Shown here one piece after another: positions 12,919 through 54,779 of a DNA stretch of 64,000 bases. The position numbers and the translations under genes were made by a program. Every line of letters begins with the position of its first letter. The stretch's first letter is position 1. The stretch spans positions 8,742,001-8,806,000 of the forward strand of contig CM114271.1 of assembly GCA_050084515.1 (NCBI GenBank), written 5' to 3'. The DNA is from Blasia pusilla. Taxonomy: Eukaryota. Below the pieces are notes generated by a model. That model saw nothing but the letters and a program-made list of their open reading frames with translations, searched no databases and was not told where the DNA came from.

Positions 12919-13061
12919 ATGAAAATTAGATGGAAAACACATTGCTTTCTTATAACAATGAATAAAAATTGGACCAAACCTACCCTTAATATGAAATTAG
13001 ATGGAAGACACATTGCTCTCTAATAACAATGAATAAAAATTGGACCAAACCTACCCTTAAT
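12919..13061. repeat. ~72-bp tandem duplication
   Basis: atgaa(a)attagatggaa.acacattgct...ggaccaaacctacccttaat occurs twice head to tail. Confidence 0.9.
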
Positions 13062-24700: not shown

Positions 24701-26239
24701 TATTTTTGTTCCCTTCTCACATTGCCGTCGTTGTAGGGATTGAACATTCATGAAAATTCCCTCTACCCCAACACAAGTGGGGCAAAAAGTGTTCATTCCT
24801 CCTGGAGGTCGTCACAAGCATGCCAAAGAATTTCACTTATGGAGGCATGCCAACAAGACCAGGCAAGAGCAATGCTATAGTGTGCAGCATCCCATATCTT
24901 CCTCACAAAAGGCATACCAAAAGGAAAGGGGCCTTCGATTTACGAGCTCTACGTCAGGGCGGCTGTGACATCTGATGATGAGAAACTCTATGTGGAAGCC
25001 TTCAATTGGTGCGTAGCAAGAACTCCCCTCAAGCAAGATGTCCACATTGGTGGGGATATTTGTGGGCCTGTTTCAAGACGTCCCATACAGATGGTGGTAG
25101 AGCAGTTCGAGCGAGACTCGTGGAGACCAGATAAGTATCTCGACTTCAGGCAAGTGAAGAGGCAACATCGAGGAACGAACCCGGTAATTGATTTGGATGA
25201 AGAAATTATGCCGCCCAGGTATTCGGAGATCCCAAATTGCTCCCAAATCCGAGATGCAGTAACTTCTCTAAAATCAAATAATGTTTTATTTCAAAAGCCC
25301 TCCGTTGTTGGAAGTTCGCAACATCTGGTCTTAGGATAGTTCAACAGTATGGGATTTTGGTCATTGAGGTGGATTGCAACCTCAAAAGGTGGCATATATC
25401 TCGGAGCAACCCTGGACGTGGACCCACTTGCAGGGCAGGATCTGATGGCATTAGGAGAGCATGCGGCACTTTTCTAAATAAGAACTGTACAAGGACTGGA
25501 CTACCACTGCTTGGATTTTGGGGACTCAGAACCATTGATCGTTTAACAAGGACCGGGATCAATTGAAGCACTTCTTCTGCCCAAATGAATCCTCTGCTTT
25601 CCGAAAGTCTTATCCGGCTGCCATTGGAGGTCCAAGGAATATTCCCACGATTTGGCCCATTGCCTCAGGTACAAATTGCACTCAAGACAAAGTGGATAAT
25701 CTTACAAGTGCCGATTGCAGACTCGTAGACGGAGGAAGTTCGGAGCATGTTTGCATTACAAAGACCTTCACATTTCTTATGCAACCCAAGATTGATGTCA
25801 ACATGTACCTGGAGAAGGTGGATGATCTCAATCCACTATTTCTGTTTGAGTCTAGAAATGGGATGAAGAGAAACAGAATGTGTAGGCCAATGGTGGAGAG
25901 AGCAAAGCGAATCACATGAGCTCGGGAGGCAAACATGGAAATCATCGCCACAAAAGACGTCAAGAGTGGCAATGGAATAAGAAGGATGTATTGGGTGAGG
26001 AATAACATTGTAAATTCAAGTGTCAAAGGGGTGTATGTGGTGCACATCCATTGCTTTCCCACATGTTCCTATGATGACTTTGTCCAAAGAGAGACAAGTG
26101 GGAAAAGGTATTTCCCTTCTAAGCACATGTACTATGTGTTGCTTGTAGTTTTAAGAGAGTCGGAGGTAGGAGTAGGAATCCACCAACCAATTTTGTCCCT
26201 CAAAGAAGTGCAAAGTTATTTTTAAACAAACCACTTTGA
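21749..26239 (+). pseudogene. Copy 1 MULE-type transposase with C-terminal SWIM finger, degraded
   Basis: ORF 22659-23495 has WVSFDICYRV and GLMADNAQPGWIAIREVF; decayed SWIM at ~26070-26135. Confidence 0.85.
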
Positions 26240-26647
26240 GGATACAAAATGAGGTCTTAGATTGTACTTTCATTTGCTAGAACCTTCACTTTGAGCTTGA
26301 ACTCTATTCAGCTTAGGGCAAATGAAAGATTTTTTCCAGACCTTGGATGGAAAAAGTGATTTGTTCCACATTTATGATTCCAATGATTTTTCAGTTTTTA
26401 AAATTTTGTGCAAATTGCAACCTGTCGGATTCAGATGGGTTGCCAAAATGTGGAAGAGGAATTTTTTTTTGTGGGAGTGCCTAAGCACTGAGAACAAAAG
26501 TGCAAAAAAAATCACAAAAATTTGTCCTCTCTTCAACCCAACGGAAACTCTCTTCAAATCACACGAAACTCTCTTAAAAAATAAAGTATCTCTTTGGGTT
26601 GAAGGTAGTTTCCTCTCTCCTCTCTTCCTCTCCTCTTACCGCTCCTT

Positions 26648-26920
26648 GTGTTTGTGTGCACTTGAGAAGAGTCTTTTTCAAGAGGGAAGAAAAACCTTTT
26701 ATTCTTTGGTACTTGTAAGACAGTGTCGTTGTAGTTAGTGAAGCATTTTAGTGAAGAAGGAGTTTATTCTTGATATTCTTTATAAAACCTCTCTTTACTC
26801 AAGAAATAGTGGTTTGTTGGGAACGGAATTTATACTTTGCGAGAAAAAGAGTATCTTTTTCCTAGAGTTGTACATCACATAAGGAAATAGGTAAGGGAAT
26901 TTGGGCGCCGCTGCTGGGGA
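26648..26920 (+). other. Remnant of a Ty3/gypsy 5' LTR and a tRNA-Asp-like PBS (26902-26920)
   Basis: TGGGCGCCGCTGCTGGGGA resembles the Athila-type PBS TGGCGCCGTTGCCGGGGA and lies just upstream of gag-like sequence. Confidence 0.6.
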
Positions 26921-29399: not shown

Positions 29400-31034
29400 C
29401 TGTTTTGCATAGAAGTTGAAGACCTTGGTGCGCCGGAAGTAGAAGTTGAAATTGAAGGGCATACCATCAAGAAGGTTCCTATAGATTCTGAAAGTGGGAT
29501 CAACATCATGACAGAGCAGACTGCGTAGGCTTTGGGTTACACTAAGTATGAACCCACCGATAAGTATGCACGCTTTGCGGATCAGTCTTGTAAGCGGCCC
29601 TTGGGGCAGCTTACCCCGACACCCACTATGATAGGAGGGATGCTATTTCTACTGGACTATCTTGTCCTTCACCCTTTGACAGTCACTGGTTATCCCTTAC
29701 TCATTGGAAGCCCGTGGCTTTATGGGGCTCAAGTCAATACGGATTGAAAAAGATGAAGATTCATTGTCCAAGCACCATCAAGTACTTCCAAGAAGTTGGT
29801 GAAGTTGCCTTGGAAGTCTTGGCCGCCTCAAGGAGAGACACCTGCCTTGGATGAGGGGTATACCTCGGATCACGACCTCAGAGTTGAGACACAGTCCTCG
29901 TCCTATGTGTGCTATTTGGAGTGCTATGAGATAGATGAAGAATTTCTACAATCAGAACAAAGCCACTCTTGTCCAAGGGAGGACCCATCGAGGCTCACTA
30001 TCTACCAGTTCAGGGAGAAGATGGTGCAGGAGAAGGACTACCAAGAAGTCTTGATCAGCGATACTAAGGCCTTGCGTGTGTCTGCAGACTTGTCTTCATC
30101 TGAACTTTCACTATATAAATCTTTGCTTTCGAAGTACCTTGATGTGTTTTCCTACACCATGGATGAGATGAAAGGAGTACAAGCCAAATATGGGGAGCAT
30201 AGAATTGATCTGAAGATTGGGGAAATCCCTGTGCGAATGCCGCAATATAGATTGAATCCAAAGTATTCCTTAATGGTCAAAGATGATCAGAGGTTGGAAG
30301 CAGGAGTCATTTATCCGGTACTTAGTAGTGAGTGGGTATCTACCATAGTCATTGTTTCGAAGAAGCAATCGGGTAAGATCAGGGTATGTCAAGACTATAG
30401 GAAGCTTAATGCGGCCACCCTGAAGGATCATGACCCCCTGCCCTTTACGGATACTATCTTAGATAAAGTGTTTGGTCATGAAGGCTATACATTCTTGGAG
30501 GGGTATTCCGGTTACAATCAAGTGTCCATAAGAGAAAAGGACCGAGCTGTGACTACCTTCACCACGGATTTGGGAACTTTTGCCTATCAAGTGATGCCTT
30601 TTGGCTTGTGCAATGCCCCGGCCACTTTTCAAAGAATGATGATCTCTTTCCTTCAGGAGTACTTGCAAAGGTTCATAGAAATCTTCCTAGATGACTTTTG
30701 TGTCTTCAGCTCGGCTGCCAATCATTTGCAGAAGCTAGAGCTCACCTTGGCTTGGTGCAGAGAAGTGTAGTTGTCTTTGCACCCAGAGAAGTCTTACATT
30801 GCAATGAAGGAGGGTATCCCTTTGGGGCATCGAGTGTCTTTGCACGGTATCGAAGTGGATAAGGCTAAAGTGGAGATAATTTCAGAGTTGGAAGCTCCCA
30901 CGAATCTTCGTGAGCTAAGAGGATTCTTGGGGCATGTGGGGTACTATCGCCGGTTGATTAAGGATTACGCACTAAAGGCGAAGCCTTTAACTACCCTACT
31001 GAAGAAGACAGAAAAGTGGGAGTGGTTGCCAGCA
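29400..31034 (+). pseudogene. Ty3/gypsy pol, 5' half: protease and reverse transcriptase
   Basis: Protease-like VPIDSESGINIM (~29475-29510); RT motifs RVCQDYRKLN, GYSGYNQV, VMPFGLCNAPATFQRMM, IFLDDF and LRGFLGHVGYYRR; ends at KWEWLPA where copy 2 is inserted. Confidence 0.93.
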
Positions 31035-32878
31035 GGGGGTTGGTATTCTGGCAGGAGAGAGTAAGAGAGGAGAGGAAGAGAGGAAGAGAGGAGAGTCTCT
31101 CTTCAAAAAAAAGGGCCAAATCCGCCTCCTCTCTTCAAAACTTTTTGACATATTTGAAATTTTTGTTTGCTTTCAAATTCATGAAATCTTTAGAAGAGAG
31201 TAGGTAGTGGTCCACATTCGGGCCTAAAAAAATCTCCTGTTTCCTGGGGGCGAAAAAAAAGTAGACATCATAAGACCACTACAAACATTTTTCCATCACT
31301 CTCCATGTGAGCCTAAGTTTCTTATCATTACCTGTCTCGGTCTACAAAAAGCAGTGCCCATGGGTATTTTTGTTGGAGGACCACCCGGATGCCAACCTCT
31401 CTTTTTGCAGGGATTTTTGCCTGCATCGTGGCCTCCCCTGAATTGCCCCATAACCAACTTTCTGTTGGTTATGAATGGTGTCTGCTCAAGACCAACTTTG
31501 TGAAATGTGAACACATGAGAGGATAATTGAACCAAAAAGTTGTTAGCTGTTTGGAGTAAAGAGGAATTGATGTCCCTTCATTCAGATCCTAAGGCTGAGA
31601 AACCGAGAAGCTGCACCCCTCCCAACCCGTAAGAAAGCTCACCATAAGAAAGGAAAGATTTTTAGAAGGAATTTTCTTCCACCCTGCACCCACGACGATC
31701 TAACAGGTTGGGAATCCGAAATGGCAATCCGACAGGTAGTAGGAATCCTGCACATCTTAGACAAGAAAAGAAGCCTACAACTGGTTTGACGAATGTAGGG
31801 GGACGAGCCAAACGTTAAGAAGCCCGCCACAATGCGTCAGAAGTTGGTCTCACAGGGAAAGAGTCCGATCACTCAAGCAGCCAACCTGTCATAATCCGAC
31901 AGCTTGCTTGGTAATGGTTAAAAAGTTGCAGTGGGCAAAAAGCAAAAAGTTGCAACCCGTCGGAATCATACGAGTTGCAAAATTGTAATTCTGAGTAGCT
32001 AAAAGAACACAATCCACAAGTCCAAAAATATATTCCAGCAAACTTTTACAAACACCATTATCGGTTGAAAAAATCTCGTCCTTTATTACCTCCGAAGGAA
32101 CCTCGGAAATGTACATTTGACCTAGTCTATGATTTCTTCAGCCTTGTCATCTACAAATTTACTCCTAACTCTCCTCGGTGACAGTACCAAAGGAATGTCC
32201 TGGGATACAAGTGGCTCCTCCGGCCGATTGTAGACGGGATAAAAATGTTGGCGATTTGAGAGCCTTGGCCCCCCAGTGCACGCCATAACGGTCCCATGTA
32301 ACCTGATTTGAGTCCCACCGCCTTCCTTGGCAAAAGATACCTTGTACGCTCGCAATGTGACACCCATCCAAAGTATCAATATGTGCTCCGTCCTTGGTAA
32401 TACCATTATGGCAATCGCAGGTAGTAGGAATCCAACACGTGAGAGAAGAAAAGAAGCCTCGCCGCCTTTACCGATTGAGGGGAAGGTGCCAAGGAAGAAG
32501 CTGGCTGTGATCGCCTCTTAAGTTGGACCAACAGGGAAAGAGTCCGATCAGGCAATCTATCGGAATCCAACAGGTTGCCTGGAAGTGGTAAAAAGGTGTT
32601 GTCGTCAAAAAGTGAAAAGTTGCAAGCAGGAGAAATCTGACGGGTTGCAAAATAGAAGTCCGCAGAGTACATAGACGATCACATTCGAAAAGACATAAAA
32701 AATGTTCAGCAAACTTTTACAAGCACCACCATCGTTTGAAAAAATCTTCTCCTTTATATCATCCGAAAAAAGCTCGGAACTGTACATTTGATCTATTCTA
32801 TGAAATCTTTTGCCTCATCATCAAAAAATTCCCTACTCCAAACGCTGCAGTCAAGTTGGGTCGTTGAGTTCTTTGAAC

Positions 32879-35800
32879 TCACTCGTCATCGTCCGAGAGC
32901 TCTTGCAAAATTACTTTCGGCCTTTCCCTCCCAATTTTCAGAATCGTTGGAAGTGACGATGGAGTCACTACCAATGGTGGGTTTGGAACCGGAGCTCTTG
33001 GCTTCGGTGGAGAGTTGTACGCCCCAACGAGCCCTTCAGATACGCGCTTTGCCGCTTGCAAGGTCAACAGTTCTGCCTTCCCTTGAGGCAGAGAATGTTC
33101 TGCCACTCGCCAGCGCCTTTGATAGTTGCCCTGAAAGTCCCACTAAGTCGAACACCAAGTCACCCGGCCTTGAGCAGAGCTCGATGAGCGTTGCATGTGG
33201 TGGCGATTTTTCCTTCCTCCCGTAAGGGGTACTGTCTTTCTTGCATGTAAATTCCGGGGGAATTGTACAAACTATCTAAGCTGTACCCATCTGAGCATGG
33301 ATCCAGAGGATCTTGGATCTTGAACACCTGGAAATTGTGCTCGGGCCGAACAAAGTAGTACACGTAGGAGTGGTCCATATGTAAAGAAGCACGTTGGAAA
33401 CAATGTCAGCAACTTGGCATAATGTGCAACACGTCACCAAAGAAGTCGGCTAGACCCTAGAGAACTTTTTCAATTAATAACTTTGGATAACCATCGGGTT
33501 GTTTTGTCCCTGACCAACCCGTCGCCTTTCCGACGGGTTAGTCAGGGACAAAACAACCCGTCGGGCTCTCCGTTGTTTTTGTCCGTGAGCAAACCGTCGG
33601 AAGGCGACGGGTTGCTGGCTTAGAGCAGTTCATGCTTGGCTGAGAGCAACCCGTCGCTTTCCGACGGGTTGCAGCTTTCCGGAAACACAGGGAAAAACCA
33701 AAAGCAACTGCAACCCGTCTGGTTCCGACGGGTTGTAGATACACCACGGTTTTCCCTATCTAAGCCAGCAACCCGTCGCCTTCCGACGGGTTGCTCACGG
33801 ACAAGGACAACGGAGATATACTATCGGAAATTAACACTCATTGAGCCTTACCCAAATTTGAAAATATATTTGATATTATACTGCAGGAATAGAGCCTTAC
33901 CCGAATCTGACTCGTCGCGGATCGGAGTGGGTACTCGTTTTTTATGATCCACGATTGCGCCGTCCTCCACTTTAGCGACCTATTGACGCACTGGAGGTTG
34001 AAGAGCTCGTCCTCGCTCCCTCCAGTCAACACCAAGAAGCAGCCCCTGTCACTCAGATAGGCGTCTGCAAAGGAGAACAATAGCACGATTTGGTCATAAG
34101 AGAGTGGCACATTCCACTCAGGTACCCCGTCCGACGGATTCTCGCCCCACAATCGCAACCCCGAGGATAGATCAGCGATCAAGAGATCCACCGCAACCTC
34201 TTCGACCACTCCATTCACCGTCCAGGCAGCATGCCCGTTTCGTTGGAGCTTCCGTCCCAGCGTTGTCAATTTATCGATGGCTGGTGTCAACGCTTGAGGA
34301 CTGAAGCTTTTCAGCTCATCCAGTTAAGGAGTAAACTGAAGGAAGACACTTGTCCGGGTCGTTGTTTGTATGTGTCTTCCCAATGATGATGGACTGTATT
34401 CTCCTTGTGACAACCCTGGCACCTCTCGCTTCCGCTTCTCCCGAGTCTGCGGATGGCTTGTCGGTGTCTCTATGACCTCAAACTCTGGTGGGGTTTTTTT
34501 CGCCGAGGACTTGGTCCGACCCTCTCTCCCCGCTCGCCCGGACGATTCCGCCTCTGGCCTTGAATCTTCACCCTCTCTTTGGGAAGACTCGGCCTCGGAA
34601 TTTTTCCCTCCCCTCGCCTTGCCTTTGAGACTCGTTGTGGATTTGTCTTTGGCTGTACGGACCTTGGAATCCAACTCAGCTGTCTCGTGGGCTTGCTCTT
34701 CCGCATCTCCTCCGAAGAAGTCTTCAGGCTGCACAAAATTGGGGATGTCGTCTTGTCCTGAGGCCACTGCATCATGAAGCACTCGTAAATCCTTATCACT
34801 GATGTCTTCAGGGTCGTTGAAGTCAAGCCAAATGGGGCAATTCTCCACCTCCCAATCGGACATGTGCTGCCCCATCTCCATGTCGTACATGGAGAATGTG
34901 TCTCCATCAGGCGGCGAAGCCCACAATTTCAAGGCTGCCGGTAATTTTCCCCAGGTACTTGCATTCTTACACTGGACGAGGTACGTGAAGACCATCCGTT
35001 GGGCAGCTTTTACTCAAACTGAATCGGCCGTCTGCCCGTGTAGATCTCGCTTCTTCTTTGCTTGATCCCGTTTGTTCCCCTCGATTTCTTCGTCAAGCTC
35101 TGCTTGAGGGAGGACGCAAACCTTGAACATTGTCTTGAATCCTGGGTTTTTGATTGGCTTGTCCCGGATGTCGTCGAGCCAAACCTCGAAATCTACAGAA
35201 CTTTCCAGGTTTGCTTCATCCGAAATGGGCTCTAATCTTTTGAGCTCGCTGCATCGCCCAAAGACCGACTTCCCGATAACCCGCAACGCGTCCCAGAATG
35301 ACCATTCGCGTAGCCAGTGGGAGATCACTGGATCGGACACACCTAGAGGATGGTGTGGCCCCCTCTTCTAGGCCTACGTGCCCTCGAGATTGATTTTCAT
35401 CAATCAGATCCTCCTAAACTCGCTTATGCGGGACAACGCAAACCGATGCACACGATCCAGGGACACTTTCTCCCCAATCCGACCTTGCGGATCTTCATCC
35501 CTTTTCCGCTGGCGCTTGATAATCGCCTTCAGCTCCTTGTAAAACTCCGGACCAAGTTCGGGGTTGAGAATGTTGATGTTTCGCTGCATCTTGCTCGCCG
35601 TGTATTTCGTGGCTGCAGATACTGCAACTTGGATGAATTTTGTGCGCTCAGACCCAGATACTTTCTCCCTCCACTCCAGCTCTAGCTCCAGTGCAGCGCT
35701 CTTCTTCGCGGCCTGTATCTTCGACCAGAAAAGGACGGTTACGGCTACATCTTGGGAAATAAACTTATTTGCCCAAGTTTTCTTTTTTATCTGAGCACCC

Positions 35801-37898
35801 TTTGCAAGCATCTGATTTACGGGCGTCACCAAGAACCCTTGTACTCTCCCGGTGCATCGTAAGCACCTTCTTCACCCGATCGCGATCCTGGATCCGGTGG
35901 TGGGTGACATTCCCCTCCGATACAATCCGCACATCCAAACTCAACCCGCCGAGAAAATTTGTAAGTTACATGGGTTCTGAACCCGTCGGACTCGACGGGT
36001 CGTCACAACTCAAGGTCGGATTCTAGAACGAAGCTAAATGATGCAACCCATCGAGTCCGACGGGTTGCATTCAGATTTGCTAATGCTGGTTTCAACCGTC
36101 GGACTCCGACGGGTTGTGCAATTGAACATACTAACGTGAACATAGCAACCCGCCGGAGTCCGACAAAGTTGCGCAATTGAATGGAAACTTGCAATTTGAC
36201 GTGAAATTTGCTAAACCAACTTCCGAATGCAACCCGCGTCGGACTCTCGGCGAGTTGATTTCGCCAAAAATAGTTCGAAGTCAAGCAACCCGTCGGACTC
36301 GACGGGTTGCTTTGGGCAAAACATACTAAACCGGTCGGTCGAACAACTCGCGGAGTCCGACGAGTTGCTTTCTTCAAAAAAATCCTGAAAAGGCGGCGAG
36401 TCGAGCAACCCGTCGGACTCCGACGGGTTGCTTTGGGCCAAAAACTTATTAAACATGTGGTCAGTCGAACAACTCGTCGGAGTCCAACAAGTTGCATTGT
36501 TCAAAAAACGTCATGAAAAAGCGTCGAGTCGAGCAACTCGTCGGAGTCCGACGAGTTGCTTTCGGCAAAAAAAGACCTAACCCATTCATCAATCGAGCAA
36601 CTTGTCGGAGTCCGACGAGTTGCGTTTGGCCAAAAGCATCCCAACAATAGTGCCGACCCAAACAACTTGTCGAAGTCCGATGGTTTGCAGCAAGAAGATA
36701 CTCACGTATTCATGGCATGCATTGCCATCTCCACCGTCGCCATGTGATGAGGGAATGGATGAAGGACCACTACCTTCACGAAAAAATGTGCCTCCAAGGA
36801 GTTGGGCCGCTCCTCTGCAAACTTGGTCCACGCCATGAACCTGTGATTTCCATCCCAGATGAAGAAATACAGATTCCTCATCCAGCTGAATTCCGTGCCC
36901 TCTACTTGCCTTCTGAAATCCTGGTCTCTCATCCTCCAGAATGTGTCGAGCTTATCCAAGTCCTCCTCCGTAACCAAGGCTTGGGTTCCATGCTCGTCGT
37001 AAGGCTGAACATAGAAGGGAGGAAAGTTGTTGACATAGGATGCTGTGGCCGCCGATTGTTTAAGCTTCGCGATGTCCTCGTCGGACTGAATTTTGCAGAT
37101 GTATTCCATTGTCCGCAATCGGTAGAGTGGAATCCTCGGGGCATTGTGGCCCTCCATGAATGCCATCTGCTTTACCACCTGTCAGAACCGGGACAAGATC
37201 AATAAGCTACACTGAATTCCCAATGAATTGCAATTCACATAATTCAAAAAACCTAGATCCTCTCTTACCCGCTCAAAAATTGGGTCGGTTTCTTGACCAG
37301 CCAACTTGTCTGAGACAGAAGCTGGAAAATCGATTGGGAACTCGTCGATCCGATAGAGGTCGATGTCTTCCGCCGGGCTTGGAGACGAGAATGACCGCTC
37401 TCCGGCTTCTTTGGCAATGTCCACCATCTCCACGCTGGCGGTCCTCATGACCTCGTCGTCCGTGATTTGAACTTCTGGCGTTTCTGCTATGTTGATTGTG
37501 TCCCCGGACTTCATCGGGGACATTTACCGCATCTCAACACTTTTGGTTGGACGGGCAGGGCTGTCGTTAATGGCTATCGCTTTATCCCTCCTCGCTTTAG
37601 CCAATTCTGCTCTCCTCAGCGACGCGTCCAGACGCTTCTTTTCTCTCTTTTCGTCGGCGATTCTTTTCTTCAAGGCCTGCGATGTCTCAGCCTCTGCGTT
37701 CTGTCTATCGAGCGCCTCTTGAACACGTCTCGCAAGAAGCTCCTGGTTGTGCATCTCCGCTTCCCTTTCCCGCTCCTCGATTTCCTGCTGCCTAATTTCA
37801 TTTGCCGAACGAGGCCCTGGAGATGCAGACGCATGAGTCATAATGGACTTCGGAGTGAAGCTCCCAGACTTGTTTGCTTGTGATTTTTTCCTCGTCAT
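32879..37898 (-). pseudogene. Copy 2 of a four-exon gene: coiled coil, ParB/Srx-like domain, unknown middle region, beta-class N6/N4 DNA methyltransferase-like domain
   Basis: Inferred exons 37898-37269, 37178-36706, ~35927-33901 and 33378-32879; donors GTAAGA, GTGAGT and GTAAGG with phases that join; motifs FFIWDGNHRFMAW, VDLLIADLSSG, LSDRGCFLV, SWIIKN and LCSRPGDLVFDLVGLSG; several stops and frameshifts. Confidence 0.78.
35980..36690. repeat. Intronic array of ~27-29-bp palindromes with roughly 60-65-bp spacing
   Basis: Perfect example AGCAACCCGTCGGA-C-TCCGACGGGTTGCT at 36404-36432; about ten variants in this intron; homologous arrays at ~18350-19240 and ~47100-47990. Confidence 0.95.
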
Positions 37899-38626
37899 TT
37901 TTTCCCGAAATGCCTCCACCTATGTCCACGATGAATCGCTTGATCAGTCGCCTTGCTGATGTCGAGACGAGTCACCTTGATGGGTAGCTCGAATCGTCTC
38001 GCGATCGTTCAGTCGAACCGTCTCGCTCTCGTTCGGTCAAACCGTCTTGCTCTCGTTCCCTCGTATCGATTCGTGATGACTCGCCGTGTGAAATGCCCCT
38101 TGGTATCTGATCAGCAGCTGCGCGGGAGAGAGAGCAATGGAGATCGCAAAATGAGAAACCGGAAATGAGCAATTTCTGCCCTATTTATACTTTTCTAGCC
38201 GTTGGGCTGACCGTTGGGTCCCGTCGTCCTTTTGACGGCGACGTGCCGGAGGTTACGGAAGTCTAGACGTGAAAAAATGGCAACCCGTCTGAGTCCAACA
38301 GGTTGCGCGCCTCCGCCGTCCTTGGTACGTTGCCACGTGCGCGAGCAACCCGTCGGAGACCGACGGGTTTCAACAAAATGAAGTGTGCTTCGCAACCCAC
38401 GTCTCTGCTTCCCAAATCCGGTAACACATTGCAACAGAATTGAATGTGTTGCAACAGAATTGGATCCATTGTGTAAGATAATGTCACCTACCGAATTCAT
38501 CTTGTCAGTAAAAATCTGTCAGGAGTATCTATTTTCCTATTCACTATGAATTAAAAATTCTCATTCTCATTCTCATTCTCATTCTTTTTCTCATTCTCAC
38601 CCTCCTCCCGTACGAAATTTCTGGGA
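37899..38626. promoter_or_regulatory. Divergent intergenic/promoter region of the element
   Basis: Lies between the two head-to-head genes; TATA-like GTATAAATAG on the minus strand at 38181-38190 (also in copy 3 at ~49462-49471); palindromes; (ATTCTC)n tract upstream of the transposase ATG. Confidence 0.5.
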
Positions 38627-41600
38627 ATGGATAATTATGTTAAGCTCACTTGTGGCAGTCATCTGGCGGCCCTTCCTCAATCAGAAATCATTCGACCCCA
38701 AGCTCGTGAGTCTTTCATAGCAGTGGATGAATTTTCTCTCTGTTCGATTTCTTCTCCAAATTGGAACCATCTTTGTATCCAAAGATGTTAGGGTGGACGG
38801 TACGGAAGACATAATAGGTGAGACGGTCCAGCCAGTGACCTCAGACCGTAAAGTATGGAATCTCCTACCTCTAGCAAATGGTCAATACAGAGTTTACGGC
38901 CTGCCCCTGAATTTTTTGTTTCCCAAGTAGACGGTCTAGAATTTCCTAGTGCTCCGAGCTCTACGTTTGCAACTCCAAGCTCTGCAGATCCGGCTTCGAC
39001 TCCAACTTCACATGCTCGTATCAATGTTGTTCTTCCTGAAGAGATTCCGGATGTTATCAATCTCAGTGGATCTGTCGGACACCAACCGAGCCCTCTGTCC
39101 GCCTACTCGTTCCTTTTGCGAGTATCAGGCAATAGTTTGCTTTCGTCTCTGGCCTTGAAAATGTTCAAGCACATTCTTGTCGACGAGCTTCCGCCCACGT
39201 ATGATGGTAATTGCATTTTTGAGTTGCCTCCACTTGCTGCTCCTGCTCAAAAGAAAGATGGAGGACGCCTGAAGGGTATGGACAGAAAGTCTGATTGTCA
39301 TCGATGGTGCAGGCTTCAAGGGACTAGTGCTTCAATTCCACATGGTCCTTGGATTGTCTCTCGCCGCCAATGCGTCGGAGCCTTGGAGTGTAGAAGTCGA
39401 GCATGCCCGTATCTAGAGCGCAACGGGCGAGTCAATACGTCGCAATTCCCCCCCAAGAATGGAGAAACTCCATACGAGGTTGGTGCCACCATACCGCTGG
39501 GAGGCCATCGATGTCCTCATTGTCAGGCATCGCCCTTCTACGTTGGAGCGTGTCCTGCATACATATTTTTCATTGTCCACGACTTGGGCTCCACGTCAGA
39601 GTACACAAGGCTGGAAGTTCATGTTGGCTCCCACACTCATCTTGTGACCAATGCAATTCAAAGACACACCAAGGAGGATGTGGCGAAGAAAGTTTCCGAG
39701 GTCTACAGAAACTCTCCGGGTTCAAAGCCCGAAGTGATCAAGCTCACAAAGGCATCACAAATTTGTGAACAATTGCTTGGAATCCCTCGACAGGGCGAGA
39801 TGACGGCGGCTGAGAAGAAAAAACTCTGGGAAAATCTCGCATTTCTTGCTAATCCTGAATGCTTCTGGAATTTGTTGCGTCAAATACGAGTTCTGGATGG
39901 AAAGACGGCCGAAATGGATGCCATCGCCAGAATCAAGGCCAACTCCAGATTTCCATTCATTCAAAGATGGCAGTTCATGGGCCAAGGAGGTGAGGGATCC
40001 AAGGCCTATGTCTTCAAAATATCAACCATAGGTCTGTCGAGTGGCCTCGATCTTATAGATCGAATGAGGGAAGGGGAAGATCTTTACGGCAGCTGGGTAA
40101 GCTTTGATATTTGCTACAGAGTGCTGAACGGATGGTTGACGATGGGTGCTCACGTTTATGACCATGTGGAGAAGGGACTCAAAACTATATTTGTCTGTGA
40201 AGTAAAGGCAGAAGACGTTGGCAGTTTGAAGATGTGCTGGTTACTCTTATTGGAGGTGGTGAAGGAAAACAAAAGACCACCTCCGGAAATTTATGGGTTC
40301 ATGGCAGACAATGCACAACCTAGGTGGATTGCTATCCGGGAAGTGTTCTTGGGTGGAGAGGTTCAACCGGAGAGGGAAAGGTCGGATGCTTTCCATTGGC
40401 AACAGTCTGTGACCCGGTACACCAAATCTTGCATCAAGGAGAATAAGAGGACAGAGCATGTCACTCTACTCCAACGCTGCAAGGACAGAAAAACCTTGAA
40501 GTAGGCCATGGAATGCCAGGAAGAACTTCATGGGTGGTGGAGGAAGCATGCGATTGAAGGGAAGTACAAAGAGTTGTGCTCTTGGTTGAGTTGGTGGACT
40601 GTACGTATGAGACAATGGGGAAACTTCATGCGTCCGGTGAGTTCACTATTTTGTCTTGTCAAGCTCACGCTGAGAATTTTTTGTAAAGTTGTAGCTCAGG
40701 GTGAGAAGCGTGGGAACTATAGGGATTTCAAACCAAAGAAACCAAGCAAGCTGTCGGATGCGACGGGTTGCCCGAGTGTGCAACCCGACGGAAACCGACG
40801 GGTTGCATCCAGATGTTTGGTGCAACCCGAGTGTGCAACCCGTCGGGACCCGACGGGTGACGGAGTCGTTCATGGGATGCCTCGGCCTTGCAACCCGTCT
40901 GGTTCCGACGGGTTGCAGTAGGTGGGTTTAAGGTTACAACATGTCGGGACCCGACGGGTCATGGAGTCGTTCATGGGATGCCTCGAGCCTGCAACCCGTC
41001 TGGTTCCGACAGGTAGCTTATTTCTTTGACTCCTGAGTTATTTTTGTTCCCTTCTAACATTGCCGTCGTTGCAGGGATTGAACGTTCATGAAAATGCCCT
41101 CTGCCCCAACACAAGTGGAGCAGAAAGTGTTCATTCCTCCTGGAAGTCGTCACAAGCATGCCAAGGAATTTCACTTGTGGAGGCATGCCAACAAGACCAG
41201 GCAAGAGCAATGCTACAGTCTGCAGCATCCCATATCTTCCTCACAAAAGGCATAACAAAAGGAAAGGGGCCGTCAATCTACGAGCTCTATGTCACGGTGG
41301 CTATGAGATCTGGTGATGAAAAAATGTATATGGAAGCCTTCAACCGGTGCGTAGCTGGAACTCCCCTCGAGCAAGACGTACACATTGGTGGGGATATTTG
41401 TGGGCGGGTTTCAAGACGTCCCATACAGATGGTGGTAGAGCAGTCCGAGCGAGACTCGTGGAGGCCAGATAAGTATCTTGACTTCAGGCAGGTGAAGAGG
41501 CAGCATCGAGGAACGAATCCGGTGATTGATTTGGATGAGGAAATTACGCCGCCCAGGTATTCGGGGACCCCGGACCCGCCCCAGATCCGTGATTGAGTTA

Positions 41601-42406
41601 CTTCTCCAAAATCAGTGAATGTTTTATTTCAAAAGCCCTCCGTTGCTGGAAGTTTGCAACATCCTGTCATTGGGGTGGTTCAACAATATGGGATTCCGGT
41701 AATGGAGGTGGATTGCAACCTAAAACGGTGGCATATATCTCGGAGCAACCCAGGACGTGGACCCACCTGCAGGGCAGGATCTGATGGCATTAGGAGAGCA
41801 TGCGGCACTTTCCTAAATTTGGCCCATCGCCGCAGGTACGAACTGCACTCAAGACGAAGTGGACAATCTTACAAGTGCCGGTTTCAGACTCGTCGACGAG
41901 GGAAGTTTGGAGCATGTTCGTATTAGAGAGACCTTCGCATTTCGTATTCAACCCAAGATTGATGTCAACATGTACCCGGAGAAGGTGGATGATCTCAATC
42001 CATTATTTCTGTTTGAGTCTAGAAATGGGGTGAAGAGAAACAGAATGTGTAGGCCAACAGTGGAGAGAGCAAAGCGAATTGCATCAGCTCGGGAGGCAAA
42101 AATGGAGATCATCGCCATGAAAGATTTCTTGAGTGGCAATGGAATAGGAAGGATGTATTGGTTCAGGAACAACACTGTAAATTCAAGTGTCACAGGGGTG
42201 TATGTGGTGCACATCTGTTGCTTTCCCACATGTTCATGTGATGACTTTGTCCAAAGAGAGACAAGTGGCAAAAGGTATTTCCCTTGTAAGCACATGTAGT
42301 ATGTGTTGCTGGTAGTTTTAAGAGAGTCGGAGGTAGGAGTATAGGAATCCACCAACCAATTCTGTCCCTCAAAGAAGTGCGAAGTATTTTAAACAAACCA
42401 CTTTGA
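38627..42406 (+). pseudogene. Copy 2 MULE-type transposase (Cys/His Zn-binding N-terminal region, DDE core, C-terminal SWIM), with one intron at 40637-41074
   Basis: CVGALECRSRACPY...CPHC...C...HVGSHTH; WVSFDICY (D1); FMADNAQP.WIAIREVF...AFHWQQ (D2 and H); after the phase-0 GT..AG intron, PNTSGAESVHSSWK (E); SWIM CSCDDF...PCKHM; stops and a ~170-bp deletion at ~41817. Confidence 0.9.
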
Positions 42407-44034
42407 GGATGCAAAATGAGGTTTTAGATTGTACTTTTATTTTTCCTGAACCTTCACTTTGAGCTTGAACTCTATTCAGCCCGGGGCAAATGATAGATTT
42501 TTTCCAGACCTTGGATGGAAAAAGTGATTGGTTCCACACTTATGATTCCACTGATTTTTCAGTTTTCTAAATTTTGTGCAATTTGCAACTGGTCGGACTC
42601 AGAGGGGTTGCCAAAATATGGAAGAGGAAAAAAAAATTGTGGGACTGCTTAATATATGAACAAAAAAGTGCAAAAAAATTCAAACAAAAAGTTTCCTCTC
42701 TTCAACCCAACGGAAACTCTCTTAAAAAAAAAGTATCGATTTCGGTTGAGGTAGTTTCCTCTGGGGGCTGGTATTCTGGTAGGAGAGAGTAAGAGAGGAG
42801 AGTCTCTCTTCAAAAAAAAGGGCCAAATCCGCCTCCTCTCTTCAAAACTTTTTGACATATTTGAAATTTTTGTTTGCTTTCAAATTCAGGAAATCTTTAG
42901 AAAAGAGTAGGTAGTGGTCCACATTTGGCCCTAAAAAAACCTCCTCTTTCCTGGGGGCGAGAAAAAAGGAGACATCATAAGACCACCCTAAACATTTTTC
43001 CATCACTGTCCATGTGAGCCTAAGTTTCTTAACATTCCTCAGATCGGTCAACAAAAGCAATGCCCTAGGTATTTTTGTTGGAGGACCACCCGGATGGGTA
43101 CCTCTCTTTTTGCAGGGATTGTTGCCTGCATCATGGCCTCCCCTAAATTGCTCCATAACCAACTTTCTGTCGGTTATGAATGGTGTCTGCTCAAGACCAA
43201 ATTTCTGAAATGTGAAAAAATCAGATCCTAAGGCTCAGAAACCGAGAAGCTGCACCCCTCCCAACCCATAAGAAAGCTCACCATAAGAAACGAAAGATTT
43301 TTAGAAGTGATTTTCTTCCACCCTGCACCCACGATGATCTAACGGGTTGGGAATCCAAAATGGCAATCCGACAGGTAGTAGGAATCTTGCACATCTTAGA
43401 CAAGAAAAGAAGCCTACAACTGGTTGGACAAATGAAGGGGAACGAGCCAAAAGTCAAGAAGCCCGCCACAATGCCTCAGAAGTTGGTCTCACCGGGATAG
43501 AGTCCGATCACTCAAGTAGTCAACCTGTCGGAATCCGAGAGGTTGCCTGGGAATCCAACACGTCTGAGAGAAGAAAAGAAACCTACGCCTGCCTTTACAA
43601 GTTGAGGGGAAGGTGCCAAGGGAAGAAGCCCGCCAGACTGCCTGATCCAAAAGGGTCCGATCAGGCAACCTGTCGAAATCAGACAGGTTTCCTGGAGGTG
43701 GTAAAAAGGGTCCAGTGGTCAAAAAGCGAAAAGTTGCAAGGAGGAGAAATCCGACGGGTTGCAGTGGTCATAAAGTGAAAATTGCAAGCAGGAGAAATCC
43801 GACGGGTTGCAAAGTAGAAGACCGTGGAGTACATAGACGATCACATTCGAAAAGAAAAAATGATCAGCAAACATTTACAATCACCACCATCGATCGAAAA
43901 AATCTTCTGCTTTATATCATCCGAAAAAAGCTCGGAATCAGACATTTGATCTATTCTATGAAATCTTTTGCCAAATTATCAAAAACTCCCTACTCCAAAC
44001 GCTGCAGTCAAGCTGGTCGTTGAGTTCTTTGAAC

Positions 44035-47000
44035 TCACTCGTCATCGTCCGAGAGCTCTTGCAAAATCACTTTCGGCCTTGCCCTCCCGATTTTGGGAAT
44101 CGTTGGAAGTGACGATGTAGTCACTACCAAGGGTGGCTCTGGAACCATAGCTCTCGGCTTCGGTGGAGAGTTGTACGCCCCAACGAGCCTTTCAGATTCG
44201 CCTTTGCCTCCTTGCAAAGGTCAAGCGATTCTCGCCTTCCTCGAGGCGTAGAATGTTCTCGCCACTCGCCAGCGCCTCGATACTCGCCCCTGAAAGGCCC
44301 ACTAAGTCGAACACCAAGTCACCCGGCCTTGAGCAGAGCTCGATGAGCGTTGCATCGTGGTGGCGACTTTTCCTTCATCCCGAAGGGGTCTTGTCTTGCA
44401 TGTAAATTCCGGGGAAATTGTACAAACTATCTAAGTGTACCCATCGAGCATGGATCCACAGGATCATGGATCTTGAACACGGAAATTGTGCTCGGGCGAA
44501 CGAAGCAAAGACACGAGGAGTGGTCCATCGAAAATCAAGCACGAAACAATGTCAAAAACTAAAGAAGTCGCTTGAGAAGATTTTCAATAATCGACTTTGG
44601 ATCAACTTGTCTTGAGTCCGACGGGTTGTTTTGTCCGGACCAACCGCCGGAACCCGGACGGGTTTGCGGTTGCTTTTGGGTTTTCCAAGTTGATTTTGGT
44701 TTTGGATGCAACCCGTCGGAAGGCGACGGGTTGTCGCCTAGACCAGCCCATGCTCTTTGAGAGCAACCCGTCGCTATTAGACGGGTTGCATCCAAAAACC
44801 AAAATCAACTGCAACCCGTCGGGTTCCGACGGGTTGCAGGTACACCGCGGTTTTCCCTGTGTATGTGGGAAAGATGCAACCCGTCGGAAACCGACGGGTT
44901 GCTCTCAGCCGAGCATGGGCTGCTCTAAGCCAGCAACCCGTCGCCTTCCGACGGGTTGCTCACGGACAAAAAAAACCCAGATTGACTCATTCTACACATC
45001 ATTATAAGATAATTGAAATTATTGTACAGGAATTGAGCCTTACCCGAATCTGACTCGTCGCGGATCGGAGTGGGTACTCATTTTTTATGATCCACGATTG
45101 TGCCGTCCTCCACTTTAGCGACCTCTTGATGCACTGGAGGTTGAAGAGCTCGCCCTCGCTCCCTCCGATCCAACACCAAGAAGCGACCCTGTCACTCGGA
45201 TAGGCGTCGCAAAAGGAGAACAAAAGTGCACCTGGTCATAAGTGAGCGGCGATTCCACTCGGTACCTCGTCCCTCGGATTTTCGCCCAAAGTCGCAACCC
45301 GAGGGCAGATCGGCGATCAAGAGATCCACCGCAACCTCTTCCACCACTCCATTCACCGTCCGGCAGCGTGCGTTTCGTTGAGCTTCCGCCCCAGCGTTGT
45401 CAAATTTTCGGCGGCGTTGTCGACGCTTGAGAATCAAGTCGTTTAGCTCATCCAGTAAAGAGGTGAACTGAAGGAGGACGCTTGTCCGGGTCGTTGTTTG
45501 TCAGTGTCTTCCCAAGGATGATGGGTTGTATTCTCCTTGGGACAACCCCGGCACCTCTCGGTTCCGCTTCTCCCTAGTCTGGGGACGGCTTGTCGGGGTT
45601 TCTATGACCTCGGATTCTGGTGGCGTTTTCTTCACCGAGGACCTGGTCCGACCCTCTCTTCCTGCTGGGACGATTCCGCCTCTGGCCTCTCATCTTCAGG
45701 CTCTCTTTGGGAAGTCTCGGCCTCTGAATTTTTCCCTCCCCTCGCCTTGCCTTTGAGACCTGCTGTGGATTTGTCTTTGGCTGTCCGGACCTTGGAAGCC
45801 AACTCAGCTGTGTCGTGGGCTTGCTCTTCTGCATCTCCTCCGAAGAAGTCTTCAGGTTGGACGAAATTGGGGATGTCGTCTTGTCCTGAGGCCACTGCAT
45901 CATGAAGCACTCGTAAGTCCTTATCCGTGATGTCTTCAGGGTCGTTGAAGTCGAGCCAAATGGGGCAATTCTCCACCTCCCAATCTGACATGTGCTGACC
46001 CATCTCCACGTGGTACATGGAGAATGTCTCTGCATCCGGCGGCGAAGCCCACAATTTCAAGGCTGCCGGTAATTTTCCCCACGTACCTGTGTTCTTACAC
46101 TCAACGAGGTACCTGAATACCATCCGTTGGGTAGCTTTTAGTCGAACATTATCGGCCGTCTACTCATGTAGATCTCGCTTCTTCTTCGCTTGATCCCGTT
46201 TGTTACCCTCTACTTCTTCGTCAAGCTCTGCCTGAGGGAGGACGCAAACCTTGAACATGGTCTTGAATCCAGGGTTCTTGGTTGGCTTGTCCCGGATGTC
46301 GTCGAGCCAAACCTCGTAGTCTCCAGAACTTTCAAGGTTTGCTTCCGGCGGAATGGGCTATAATCTTCTGAGCTCCATTTGCGCACCGCCCAAAGATGGA
46401 CTTCCCGATTACCAACGCGCCCCGTAACGACCATTCGCGTAGCCAATGCGCAAGATCATCGGATCGGACACACCCGGAGGATGGTGTGTCGCCCTCTTCG
46501 GGCCTCGAGCCCTCGAGATCGATTTTCATCGTCGTATCCTCCTGAACTCGCTAATCCCGGATAACGCAAAACGATGCACGCGATCCGACACTTTCTCCCC
46601 AATCCGAGCATGCGGATCTTCATCCCTCTTCCGCCGACGCTTGATAATCGCCTTTGAGCTCCTTGTAGAACTCCGGACCAAGTTCGGGGTTGAGAATCTT
46701 GATGTATCGCTGCATCTTGCTCGCCGTGTATTTCGTTGCGGGAGATACAACAACTTGGATGAATTTGGCGCCGCCTGACGCAGATACCTTCTCCCTCCGC
46801 TCGGCTCAGCCCCAGCGGCGCTTTTCTTCGGCTTTGTATCTTCGACCAGCAAAGGATGGTTACGGCTGCATCTTGAGAAATAAACTTGTTTGCCCAAGTT
46901 TTCTTCTTAATCTGAGCACCCTTTGCAAGCATCTGATTGACAAGGGCATCGCCCAAGAACCCCCTGTACTCTCCCGGGTGCGTCGTAAGCACCTTCCTCA

Positions 47001-49186
47001 CCCGATCGCAGTCCTGGATCCAATGGTGGGTGACATTCCCTTCCGATACAATCTTGCACATCCAAACTCAACACGTCAGGAAATAACATGGGTTCCTGCA
47101 ACCTGTCAGACTCCGACGGGTCGTCACAGCTCAGGGTTGGATTCTAGCAACAAGCTAAATGATGCAACCCGTCGGAGTTCAACGGTTTGCATTCAGATTT
47201 GCTAATGCCGGATAAGCAACTCGTCGGACTCCGACGGGTTGCTGGACTGCACGCTTTTTCGGATGTTTTGTTAAGATTGCAACTCGTCGGACTCCGACGA
47301 CTTGTTTGATTGAACATAGATTTAACTAGTTTTTGGCCCAAAGCAAACCGTCGGAGTCCGACGGGTTGCTCGATAGGCCGCCTTGTGAGGTTGTTTTTTT
47401 AAGGGTTGCTTGCCCTCGAAGTCCGACGGGTTGCTTGCCTCGAAGCTATTTTTCCCCATATCAACCCGTCGGAGTCCGACGGGTTGATTTCGGCCAAAAA
47501 CTGTTTCGAGGCAAGCAACCCGTCGGACTCCGACGGGTTGCTTTGGGGCAAAAACCTTCTAAACCTGCAGTCACTCGAGCAACTTGTCGGACTCAGACGA
47601 GTTGCATTCTTAAAAAAAAACCTCACAAGGCGGCCTATCGAGTAACCCGTCGGACTCCGACGGTTTGCTTTGGGCCAAAAACTAGTTAAATCTATGTTCA
47701 ATCAAACAAGTCTTCAGAGTCCGACGAGTTGCACTCTTCAAAAAACATCCTCACAAAGCGAAACTTTGTCGAGCAACCCGTCGGACTCACGGTTTGCTTT
47801 GGGCCAAAAACTAGTTAAATCTATGTTCCATCAAACAAGTCGTCGGAGTCCGACGAGCTGCAATCTTAAAAAAACATCCGGAAAAGCGTGCAGTCTAGCA
47901 ACCCGTCGGAGTCCGACGAGTTGCTTTCTGCCTAAACAAACCTAACCCATTCATCAATCGAGCAACTCGTCGGAGTCCGACGAGTTGCGAAAGTGTTAAA
48001 GATACTCACGTGTTCATGGCATGCATTGCCATCTCCACCGCCGCCATGTGATGAGGGTATGGGTGAAGGACCACCGCCTTCGCACGTAAATGTGCCTCCA
48101 ATGAGTTGGGGCGCTCCTCCGCAAACTTGGTCCACGCCATGAACCGTGATTTCCATCCCGGATGAAGAAATGCGATTCCTCATCCGGCTGAATTCCGTGC
48201 CCTCAACTTGCCTTCTCAAGTCCTGGTCTCGCATCCTCCGAATGTGTCGAGATTTTCCAAGTCCTCCTCGGTAACTGAGCTTGGGTTCCATGCTCGTCGT
48301 AAAGGTGAACATAGAAGGGAGGAAAGCTGTCCCACGAGGATGTATCGCCGCCGATTGTTTTAGCTTTGCGATGTCCTCGCTTGATCAGATTTCGCGGGAC
48401 GTATTCCATTGTCCTTAATCGGCAGAGTGGAATCCTCGGGCGTTGTGGCCTCCATGAGTGCCATCCGCTTTACCACCTATCGAACCGGGACAAGAGGAAT
48501 AAGCTACACCGAAATCCCAATGAATTGCAATTCACATAATTAAAAACCAGAACCTCTCTTACCATTTCGAAAATGGAGTCGGTTTCTTGACCACTAACTT
48601 GCGAGACAGGGTGGCAAATCGACCGGGAACTCGTCGATCCGATAGAGGTCGATGTCCTCCGCCGGGCTTGAGTCAAGAATGACCGCTCTCCGGCTTCTTC
48701 GCCATGTCCACCATCTCCACGTTGGCGGTCCTCATGACCTCGCTGCGTCATCGATTTGAACGGTGTTGTTTCCACTATGTTGATTGTGTCCCCGGACTTC
48801 GTGGGGGACATTTCCCTCATCTCAAAACTTGCGGTTGGATGGGCTGGGCTATCATCAATGGCTATCGCTTTTTCCGGCCTCGCTTTAGCCAATTCTGCCC
48901 TCCTCACCGATGCGTCCAGACGCTTCTTTTCTCTCTTTTCGTCGGCGATCCTTTTCTTCAAGGCCTGCGACGTCTCGGCCTCTTCGTTCTGTTTATCTAG
49001 CGCCGCTTGAACGCGTCTCGCCAGAAGCACTTGGTTGTGCATCTCCGCTTCCCTTTCCCGCTCCTCGATTTCCTGCTGCCTAATTTCATTCGCCGAACGA
49101 GGCCCATGAGAAGCTCACGCAGGAGTCCTAATGGACTTGGGAGTGAAGCTCCCAGACTTGTTGGCTTGCGTTTTTTTCCTCGTCAT
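44035..49186 (-). pseudogene. Copy 3 of the ParB-like / methyltransferase-like gene, with many small indels
   Basis: Colinear with copy 2; VDLLIADLPSG in ORF 45192-45437; MVFRYLVECKN...CPIWLDFNDPED in ORF 45632-46123. Confidence 0.75.
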
Positions 49187-54330: not shown

Positions 54331-54779
54331 GGATGCAAAATGAGGTGGTTGATTGTACTTTTATTTTTTTCTCAACCTTCACTGTGAGCTTGAATTCTAT
54401 TTAGCCCGGGGAAAATGATAGATTTTTTCCAGACCTTGGATGGAAAAAGTGATTGGTTCCACACTTATGATTCCACTGATTTTTCAGTTTTGTAAATTTT
54501 GTGCAATTTGCAACTCGTCGGACTCACAGGGGTTACCAAAATATGGAAGAGGAAAAAAAAACTGTGGGATTGTTTAATAAATGAACAAAAATGTGCAAAA
54601 AATTCACACAAAAAGTTTCCTCTCTTCAACCCAACGGAAACTCTCTTAAAAAAAAGTATCTATTTCGGTTGAAGGTAGTTTCCTCTCTCCTCTCTCCTCT
54701 CTTCCTCTCTTCCTCTCCTCTTACCGCACCTCGTTTCCTCTCTCCTCTCTCCTCTCTTCCTCTCCTCTTACCGCACCTC

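Follow-up and report, generated by a model that had tools for sequence, protein, structure and literature searches.

In this study we find that a two-gene Mutator-like transposon of Blasia pusilla carries, in clusters, a CG-rich palindrome of 27 bases, GCAACCCGTCGGA-N-TCCGACGGGTTGC. The element is about 11.7-12 kb long, and repeat families together with a three-copy alignment define three full copies, all in one orientation, in the window that we analysed, a stretch of 64,000 nucleotides (contig CM114271.1 of assembly GCA_050084515.1, positions 8,742,001 to 8,806,000; coordinates below count from its first base). Copy 1 occupies 14670-26650, copy 2 31035-42745 and copy 3 42746-54779, all on the plus strand, and they are joined by a short derivative (59812-60306, plus strand) and a partial copy 4 (63700-63864). 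Several tests agree that the palindromes are probably constrained beyond neutral expectation, and on balance we favour the view that they are putative sites for a protein that the element itself encodes.

The palindrome is confined to the element copies, as judged within the 64-kb window. Its 17-nt core, CCGTCGGANTCCGACGG, occurs 51 times in the window with at most two mismatches and not once in any of 100 dinucleotide shuffles. A scan for both 13-nt arms, allowing four mismatches per arm, six in total and a centre of 0-3 nt, finds 97 palindromes (34 in copy 1, 25 in copy 2, 34 in copy 3, two in the short derivative and two in partial copy 4), and the 27,342 window bases outside the element copies contain no palindrome. 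Of 156 matches to the outer 10-mer GCAACCCGTC or its complement at up to one mismatch, 155 lie inside element copies; 20 mononucleotide shuffles averaged 3.4 matches and never exceeded 7. Most internal compartments hold 8-18 palindromes per kb, as against 4.9-6.0 in the intergenic spacers of copies 2 and 3, 1.7-2.9 in the end regions and 0 outside the element in this window. Each arm contains CCGAC/GTCGG.

An earlier reading of this DNA, made from the sequence alone, had assigned variants of the palindrome to six non-coding compartments of copy 2, and the scan places clusters in each of them. The left subterminal region holds palindromes at 31881-31907, 31952-31978 and 32552-32578 and a half-site at 32636-32648 (clusters 31881-31978 and 32552-32648), which are sparse, at 1.8 per kb, and more degenerate than those of the internal arrays. 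Five palindromes lie in intron 3 of the accessory, or cargo, gene (33514-33794) and nine in its intron 2 (35978-36688), where successive units, each with GCAACCCGTCGGA-N-TCCGACGGGTTGC or a near variant, fill the interval 35980-36690 and in part form a 64/128-nt higher-order tandem repeat. Two more are found in the spacer between the divergently oriented genes (38280-38371), five in the transposase intron (40746-41017), whose position is conserved in relatives, and a single degenerate one at 42585-42611, about 135 nt from the truncated right end. None of these 25 palindromes overlaps the long sense-strand open reading frames (ORFs) of either gene, in agreement with the earlier proposal that the motif avoids exons.

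The same reading had extended this pattern to all other copies, and copies 1, 3 and 4 and the short derivative do all carry palindromes, within the limits that copy 1, a diverged subfamily, is without the left subterminal part and that copy 4 is a 400-base fragment. The arrays of copy 1 lie at 15730-16147 (6 palindromes), 18364-19239 (10), 20836-21573 (8), 23795-24185 (6) and 24550-24679 (3). Those of copy 3 lie at 43520-43691, with half-sites at 43750 and 43798, and at 44708-44959 (5), 47098-47988 (12), 49560-50088 (5) and 52465-52841 (9). The short derivative has its two at 59991-60017 and 60102-60128, and partial copy 4, which corresponds to the left subterminal region, at 63731-63757 and 63822-63848. 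In every internal compartment the number of units varies between copies; in copies 1, 2 and 3, respectively, there are 8, 2 and 5 palindromes in the intergenic spacer, 9, 5 and 9 in the transposase intron and 10, 9 and 12 in cargo intron 2. In all three copies a single degenerate palindrome is found near the right end, at 135-245 nt from the terminus, the counterparts of the copy 2 site being at 26417-26443 in copy 1 and 54510-54536 in copy 3, while sites at the left end start about 850 nt inside the element and most palindromes are internal. Left subterminal units at 43713-43811 and 32610-32648 keep the right arm (TCCGACGGGTTGC) alone, preceded by GCAAGCAGGAGAA instead of the usual left arm, and in copy 3 this right-arm-only unit recurs with a 48-nt period.

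Several features of these arrays suggest that the palindromes have been kept by selection, as had been proposed from the letters alone. Across 89 palindromes with a 1-nt centre, the 26 arm positions carry 0.7-1.85 bits of information each, the centre 0.01 and the 12 flanking positions on either side at most 0.38; because flanks and centre lie outside the search pattern, these sharp edges and the free centre are not built in by the search. The spacing of the half-sites is fixed, since among pairs less than 30 nt apart, with at most one mismatch, the distance from start to start is 17 nt in 42 of 44 cases and 16 nt in the other two; neighbouring palindromes lie at distances of 13 to 59. The statement that the arms persist and the spacers vary holds within arrays, where the mean pairwise identity is 0.79 for palindromes (235 pairs), 0.42 for spacers (167 pairs) and 0.38 for shuffled spacers. 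Most arrays are not simple copies of a unit, and some are young tandem repeats. Retention over time points the same way. At the exon Ks (synonymous divergence) of 0.7-1.3, a neutral 26-nt motif would be expected to show 7-11 mismatches, and the cargo-intron palindromes differ from one shared consensus by 3.0-4.2 in copy 1 (n = 16) and 3.0-3.6 in copy 2 (n = 14). Divergence within the arms is itself uneven, at 10.7% for the outer 10 positions versus 19.4% for the inner 3. A relative of the element, described below, has a palindrome array of its own.

CpG dinucleotides also change less often in the palindromes than in other non-coding DNA. In four directional comparisons between copies, the CpGs that differ number 9 of 149 in palindromes versus 66 of 381 elsewhere (Fisher p 5e-4), 15 of 174 versus 69 of 377 (p 3e-3), 33 of 145 versus 141 of 321 (p 1e-5) and 17 of 123 versus 45 of 160 (p 4e-3), or 6-23% versus 17-44% overall. 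This lower CpG divergence may reflect either constraint or hypomethylation, and it fits both.

How such a motif might work can be proposed from its geometry and its distribution. The 27-nt palindrome can be regarded as two inverted 10-nt half-sites, GCAACCCGTC and GACGGGTTGC, 7 nt apart, which together would form the cognate operator of the element's own protein. A dimeric element-encoded binder is plausible because the inverted geometry is rigid, the transposase is predicted to have a GCM/WRKY-like domain and the accessory gene appears to be under purifying selection. Either the transposase, acting through this domain at its N-terminus, or the accessory protein could be the binder. Dense clusters in the introns of both genes and in the divergent intergenic promoter region, along with sparser sites towards the two ends, would allow the binder to recognise its own family among the repeats of the genome. 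Binding would then most likely keep the non-coding DNA of the element transcriptionally open or hypomethylated, on the model of VANC for VANDAL21 and TnpA for Spm, although a specific anti-silencing role is a tentative proposal that we hold with some doubt. The sites near the ends and those of the short derivative possibly help to assemble a transposition complex. Protein binding, the identity of the binder and the effect of binding are inferences.

The element itself is probably a member of the Mutator superfamily that the Pfam model of Mutator-like elements (MULEs) does not detect. The features examined for this assignment were an IS256-related DDE core, a target duplication of 8-11 bp (typically 9), terminal inverted repeats, the PF10551 domain, an N-terminal DNA-binding zinc finger of the WRKY-GCM1 type and a C-terminal SWIM zinc finger; the filing rests on the 9-bp duplication, the terminal repeats, a SWIM-like motif and the nearest protein clusters in the ESM Atlas, taken together. 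Copy 2 has an intact left terminus and a truncated right terminal repeat that adjoins copy 3, which follows head to tail and whose right terminus carries a 47-nt duplication. The left 9-bp target-site duplication, TTGCCAGCA at 31026-31034, is matched at 7 of 9 bases by TTGCTTGCA at 54780-54788, and the left GA-rich terminal inverted repeat (31035-31100, plus strand) pairs with 54689-54778, including a perfect stretch of 30 nt. The ends of copy 1 pair over about 40 nt with gaps and those of the short derivative over 21 nt. Against the long repeats that MULEs usually have, these terminal repeats are short and low in complexity. Copies 2 and 3 form a head-to-tail dimer in one target site, with the junction within 42700-42790, and the 47-nt duplication at the right end of copy 3 (54680-54790) consists of terminal sequence. 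The pair interrupts the frame of a gypsy-type pol (plus strand, 29757-31025 and 54789-55000), which runs on across the insertion, the flanks translating as ...KTEKWEWLPA and LLACQTTFKELKHAL. A target duplication was not recognisable at copy 1 or the short derivative and is therefore seen at one of the three insertions examined. The short derivative, about 490 nt long and without a long ORF, has retained both GA-rich terminal repeats along with its two palindromes. DNA contigs of one sequencing run, X1, stack on the element with 147,801 records, which indicates that the family is abundant in the DNA reads of the host.

The two halves of the element have unlike histories. Between copies 1 and 2, Ks is 0.72-1.29 for the cargo-gene ORFs (15000-21500) and 0.18-0.36 for the transposase ORFs (21700-26600), which suggests module exchange between subfamilies by recombination. 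Copies 1 and 3 have further stops and frameshifts in both genes, and none of the three copies looks fully intact. The observed/expected ratio of CpG is 0.85 in copy 2 versus 0.36 in the left flank (1-14669), which holds a copia element, and from this ratio the family would be either young or less exposed than its neighbours to methylation-driven loss of CpG.

The transposase gene of copy 2 (38852-42299, plus strand) begins with a 550-aa ORF at 38852-40504, continues to about 40645 and resumes after the intron at 41030-41596 and 41817-42299. An in-frame stop at 40502 (40502-40504) is specific to this copy and is a defect of copy 2, because relatives read through it (WW...RQWG) and C is the base at 40502 in the RNA reads and in most of the family's DNA contigs. 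A HMMER scan finds 326 relatives of the transposase at E at most 0.001, 18 of which reach 1e-30. A word-based homologue search had returned no match for the transposase, and in view of the 326 relatives such blank word-based searches are not taken as evidence of absence. Pfam gives no match to the transposase ORFs of the window at E up to 10, PF10551 included, and no domain at E up to 0.01 in the 15 homologues tested out of 150 listed. The nearest clusters in the ESM Atlas contain 61-78% PF10551 members (score 0.95), which we treat as a lead only, and a search of the PDB with the transposase profile returned a chance row alone (utrophin, E 0.98).

Structure prediction adds to this picture. An AlphaFold2 model built on 76 aligned sequences (75 of the 150 listed matches, picked by length and coverage) has a mean predicted local distance difference test (pLDDT) score of 81. 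The best structural match of its residues 364-550 is the ISCth4 transposase of the IS256 family (Z 8.2, 135 residues aligned, root-mean-square deviation (rmsd) 9.0), followed by retroviral integrase cores (Z 6-7), and among 14 homologues D419 is invariant and D486 nearly so (at least 90%). The model thus gives fair support, at a moderate Z, to a predicted DDE core of RNase H-like fold that is related to IS256. Transposases of the Mutator/MULE type are akin to those of the IS256 family. Residues 88-340 of the model match the DNA-bound GCM domain 1odh_A at a moderate Z of 6.3 (136 of 157 residues aligned, rmsd 4.4), and Foldseek compares the N-terminal region to a GCM domain with a probability of 0.99 and E 0.011; conserved Cys and His columns are present in the consensus of the alignment. 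An N-terminal zinc finger of the WRKY-GCM1 type is common in MULE transposases. The ORF at 41817-42299 shows a SWIM-like CxC..CxH pattern, which is not significant in Pfam (E 0.93, 9.6 bits versus a cut-off of 19.6).

The accessory gene (33838-37919, minus strand) is a chain of ORFs at 37524-37919, 37182-37523, 36702-37181, 35404-35871, 35014-35367, 34324-35013 and 33838-34323. Compared with copy 1, all seven ORFs have a ratio of nonsynonymous to synonymous divergence (Ka/Ks) of 0.10-0.26; compared with copy 3 it is 0.21-0.45. These values are as expected of a real gene of the lineage under purifying selection. ORF 36702-37181 (minus strand) is the best conserved, with a Ka/Ks of 0.10, and contains IWDGNHRFMAW, which we take to resemble the DGxHR signature of ParB/Srx-type domains, a lead and not a finding. 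Its neighbours in the Atlas include a cluster with 11% ParB_N members and also DUF6551, and its Pfam match to DUF1015 has an E of 0.026. ParB proteins read palindromic sites. For this ORF a word-based search among longer proteins returned no homologue, and a sequence search of the PDB returned nothing. Stranded RNA reads from three runs with the same species label fall on the expected strand for both genes, at low depth. The intron status of the cargo compartments is based on ORF structure, splice-like sites and a dip in RNA depth: a donor-like GTGAGT follows the minus-strand ORF that ends at 36702 (intron 2), and depth is 0.04-0.11 in the bin 33364-33757 (intron 3) versus 1.0-4.0 in neighbouring bins. 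The one joint that RNA supports, from 32397 to 32870, was rejected as an intron, for its ends are non-canonical and it looks like a structural variant between copies.

Relatives of the element also bear on the transposase intron. Three related loci, L001, L002 and L003, come from metagenome contigs, and L002 alone covers the homologous intron, since L001 has no intron at this place and L003 stops short of it. The transposase of L002 is 48% identical to that of the window, and between the exons with ...QWGNYIRLV and ...NSTGAESVHSS its intron contains another palindrome of 26-28 nt, TATTGCTAGCGCC/GGCGCTAGCAATA, in three copies, which are 84-90 nt apart, are separated by unlike spacers and contain no CCGAC. 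The middle copy lies inside a perfect palindrome of 29 + 29 nt with 2 nt between its arms (1172-1231 of L002), suggesting that palindromes there may grow outward. The exact 27-mer has no match in the metagenome contigs, which says little as this collection is not the host genome. Among 152 homologue proteins nine have repeated 6-mers, six of which were inspected, and periodic peptides such as QPARVA, PATLAG and PATVAG in some homologues could represent read-through of GCAAC...GTTGC-type palindromes in relatives.

Three other explanations of the palindromes have to be weighed against binding by an element-encoded protein. The palindromes could act as nucleic-acid structures, either as hairpins in pre-mRNA that yield small RNAs, an alternative already raised by the sequence-only reading, or affect splicing, or as DNA cruciforms or hairpins in replication or transposition. 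As DNA, a unit does fold into a stem of 12-13 bp closed by a loop of 3 nt, with an energy of -16 to -18 kcal/mol (z -6.6 to -7.1 versus shuffles), L002 retains the palindromic form with another sequence, one copy lying within its 29 + 29-nt palindrome, and tandem repeats in non-coding parts of VANDAL elements are reported as targets of RNA-directed DNA methylation (PMC10398659). If pairing were what is kept, changes in the two arms should be matched, but we count 261 single-arm changes and 23 symmetric doubles, and when right arms are shuffled within arrays the symmetric changes average 21.0 (sd 3.1) and reach 23 in 604 of 2000 shuffles, which shows no covariation that preserves pairing. The apparent excess over a global shuffle of arms (13.1 ± 3.2, with 7 of 2000 reaching 23) arises because units within arrays are related. 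What is retained over all compartments and subfamilies is sequence, beyond pairing, and the motif occurs as well between the two genes, near the ends of the element and in a derivative that lacks a long ORF. Plant Dicer-like enzymes, moreover, need duplexes longer than 13 bp. It is the half-site sequence that appears to be kept, so two protein half-sites fit better than a hairpin, and we consider a structural role improbable and the small-RNA proposal disfavoured.

The palindromes could instead be sites for host transcription factors of the DREB/CBF type, giving the element stress-responsive expression, given that both arms contain CCGAC/GTCGG, which we take to be the core of the dehydration-responsive element/C-repeat (DRE/CRT) that these factors bind, and that clusters include the divergent intergenic promoter region. 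This appears very unlikely, as 10 nt are conserved per half-site, GCAAC outside CCGAC included, in a fixed inverted spacing that exceeds a host site of 5-6 nt, the palindrome of the relative is without CCGAC and most sites lie in introns far from promoters. The arrays might also be functionless minisatellites, a slippage-prone palindromic unit that unequal exchange and ectopic conversion would have carried into tolerant non-coding parts. Tandem Repeats Finder does report periodic arrays with periods of 35, 55, 64, 67, 76 and 128 nt and 57-93% matches, the number of units varies between copies, a young expansion with a 35-nt period and 93% identity is present in copy 3 (52480-52630), avoidance of exons is expected of any insertion, and mini-satellites are known in Rehavkus elements (PMC6446971). 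Homogenisation copies whole units, yet the spacers in most arrays are at the shuffled level and information drops at the exact edges of the motif; a single consensus also spans five to six compartments and a Ks of about 1, and the corresponding intron of the relative carries a palindrome of its own. We therefore give this explanation little credence.

Several observations also weigh against the binding of an element-encoded protein as we propose it. The palindromes were ascertained by their likeness to a consensus, so that their high mutual identity is partly built in, and alignment within arrays may pair units that are not orthologous. Sites near the ends are few and degenerate, at 1.7-2.9 per kb with 3-5 mismatches. 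A palindrome array in the homologous intron is a single case, found in the one informative relative. For the ten accessory-gene ORFs Pfam returns chance-level rows at E up to 10, with no DNA-binding domain and no DUF1985, the domain that VANC carries, and the single-sequence AlphaFold2 model of ORF 36702-37181 has a pLDDT of 40 and no usable fold. No spliced reads cross the presumed introns in the three low-depth RNA runs. Finally, CpG positions in the arms vary about twice as much as those non-CpG arm positions that are best kept (9-22% versus 1.5-8%), and for this reason the CpG comparisons argue for constraint on the whole motif, not for specific protection from methylation. Specific CpG protection was set aside, as a first ratio of 1.03 versus 2.7 was exaggerated by the free centre base and the less well kept inner positions.

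Among described systems the closest parallels to an element-encoded binder are VANC and TnpA. VANC is the anti-silencing protein of VANDAL21 in Arabidopsis (PMC5735166; Sasaki et al. 2023, PMC10398659). VANC21 localises to introns and to intergenic and terminal non-coding regions of VANDAL21, and the motif it binds is arranged in tandem repeats and varies from one related element to another (Hosaka et al. 2017, PMC5735166). Both VANDAL21 and, probably, the present element belong to the Mutator superfamily, and both combine a transposase with one or more accessory genes; both carry a short motif in introns and in intergenic and terminal non-coding parts and none in coding parts, in tandem repeats that gain and lose units, and in both cases related elements have different motifs. 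They differ in that the VANC motif is 8-9 nt long, AT-rich and non-palindromic, whereas the motif here is a CG-rich palindrome of 27 nt with rigidly spaced half-sites; VANDALs are non-TIR MULEs, whereas the present element has terminal inverted repeats (TIRs); and the present accessory protein is without detectable likeness in Pfam. Hypomethylation and binding are features of VANC, while here the case is made from sequence. We propose the VANC-like reading because a family-specific non-coding motif, variable arrays, a different motif in a relative, an accessory gene under selection and a Mutator-type transposase occur together.

In the En/Spm system, binding of TnpA to clustered CpG-containing Spm motifs, like that of the AtMu1 transposase to its own ends, is reported to go with local hypomethylation and activation, and TnpA needs high-density clusters of the motif (bioRxiv 10.64898/2026.08.24.746577, a preprint of 2026). 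The likeness lies in a clustered, CpG-containing motif, which for TnpA is the cognate site of an element-encoded regulator and whose density gives TnpA its family specificity; binding there accompanies local CG hypomethylation and activation, and specificities co-diversify with element lineages. The sites and the effect of TnpA are confined to the termini, whereas the densest clusters here are internal, and the superfamilies differ as well, with CACTA ends in Spm and a 9-bp duplication together with an IS256-like core in the present element. In Muta1, a foldback-type MULE of Aedes aegypti, subterminal repeats strengthen binding by the transposase and increase excision (Liu and Wessler 2017, PMC5499845). 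This element is also a MULE with many copies of a short repeat at its ends, its non-autonomous derivatives retain these repeats, and the symmetry of its palindromic terminal motif is important for binding. The 12-nt direct repeats of Muta1 themselves make up its terminal inverted repeats, in contrast to the palindromes here, which are mostly kilobases from the ends, in introns or the intergenic spacer. Rehavkus elements are relatives of MULEs that duplicate 9 bp of target and contain a mini-satellite internally (Dupeyron et al. 2019, PMC6446971), but they have one mini-satellite before the 3' terminal repeat, a PHD finger and arthropod or annelid hosts, and no multi-compartment palindrome is described in the accessible part of that work. 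The arm sequences are not mentioned in the searchable literature beyond two unrelated primer matches. The element reads as one that would work like the VANC and TnpA systems while being a member of neither.

Two further features of the window are recorded here for completeness. A copia-type gag-integrase polyprotein lies at its left edge (1-2564, minus strand; Pfam gag, rve and SH3), and a strongly G-skewed tandem repeat at 57467-57867, with a 32-nt unit in about 12 copies, 89% matches and a higher-order period of 198 nt, is unrelated to the palindrome.

Element-encoded regulators that act on clustered cognate motifs have so far been shown for a few elements of Arabidopsis and maize, namely VANC, TnpA and the AtMu1 transposase. 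The present element is a candidate, defined by sequence, in a different transposase clade, and it is very abundant in the DNA reads of its host. Its putative operator is unusually well defined, long and symmetric and hence easily testable, and being CpG-rich it could tie binding to the state of methylation. We further speculate, while considering it rather unlikely, that self-recognition and anti-silencing of the VANC/TnpA kind arose independently in this Pfam-invisible, Mutator-like clade, with a rigid, CpG-rich 27-bp operator that is read by a dimer and, as its binder, the accessory protein, of an undescribed family. In that event, since each operator holds four CpGs, binding could be a methylation-sensitive switch that decides the activity of a copy, and the different palindrome of the relative would mark co-evolving pairs of operator and binder across the clade. 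Should an element-encoded protein indeed bind the palindromes, this would account for one motif filling every non-coding compartment of the element, would add a new pair of DNA-binding protein and operator, and would imply that the marking of transposon 'self' is widespread and has evolved repeatedly.

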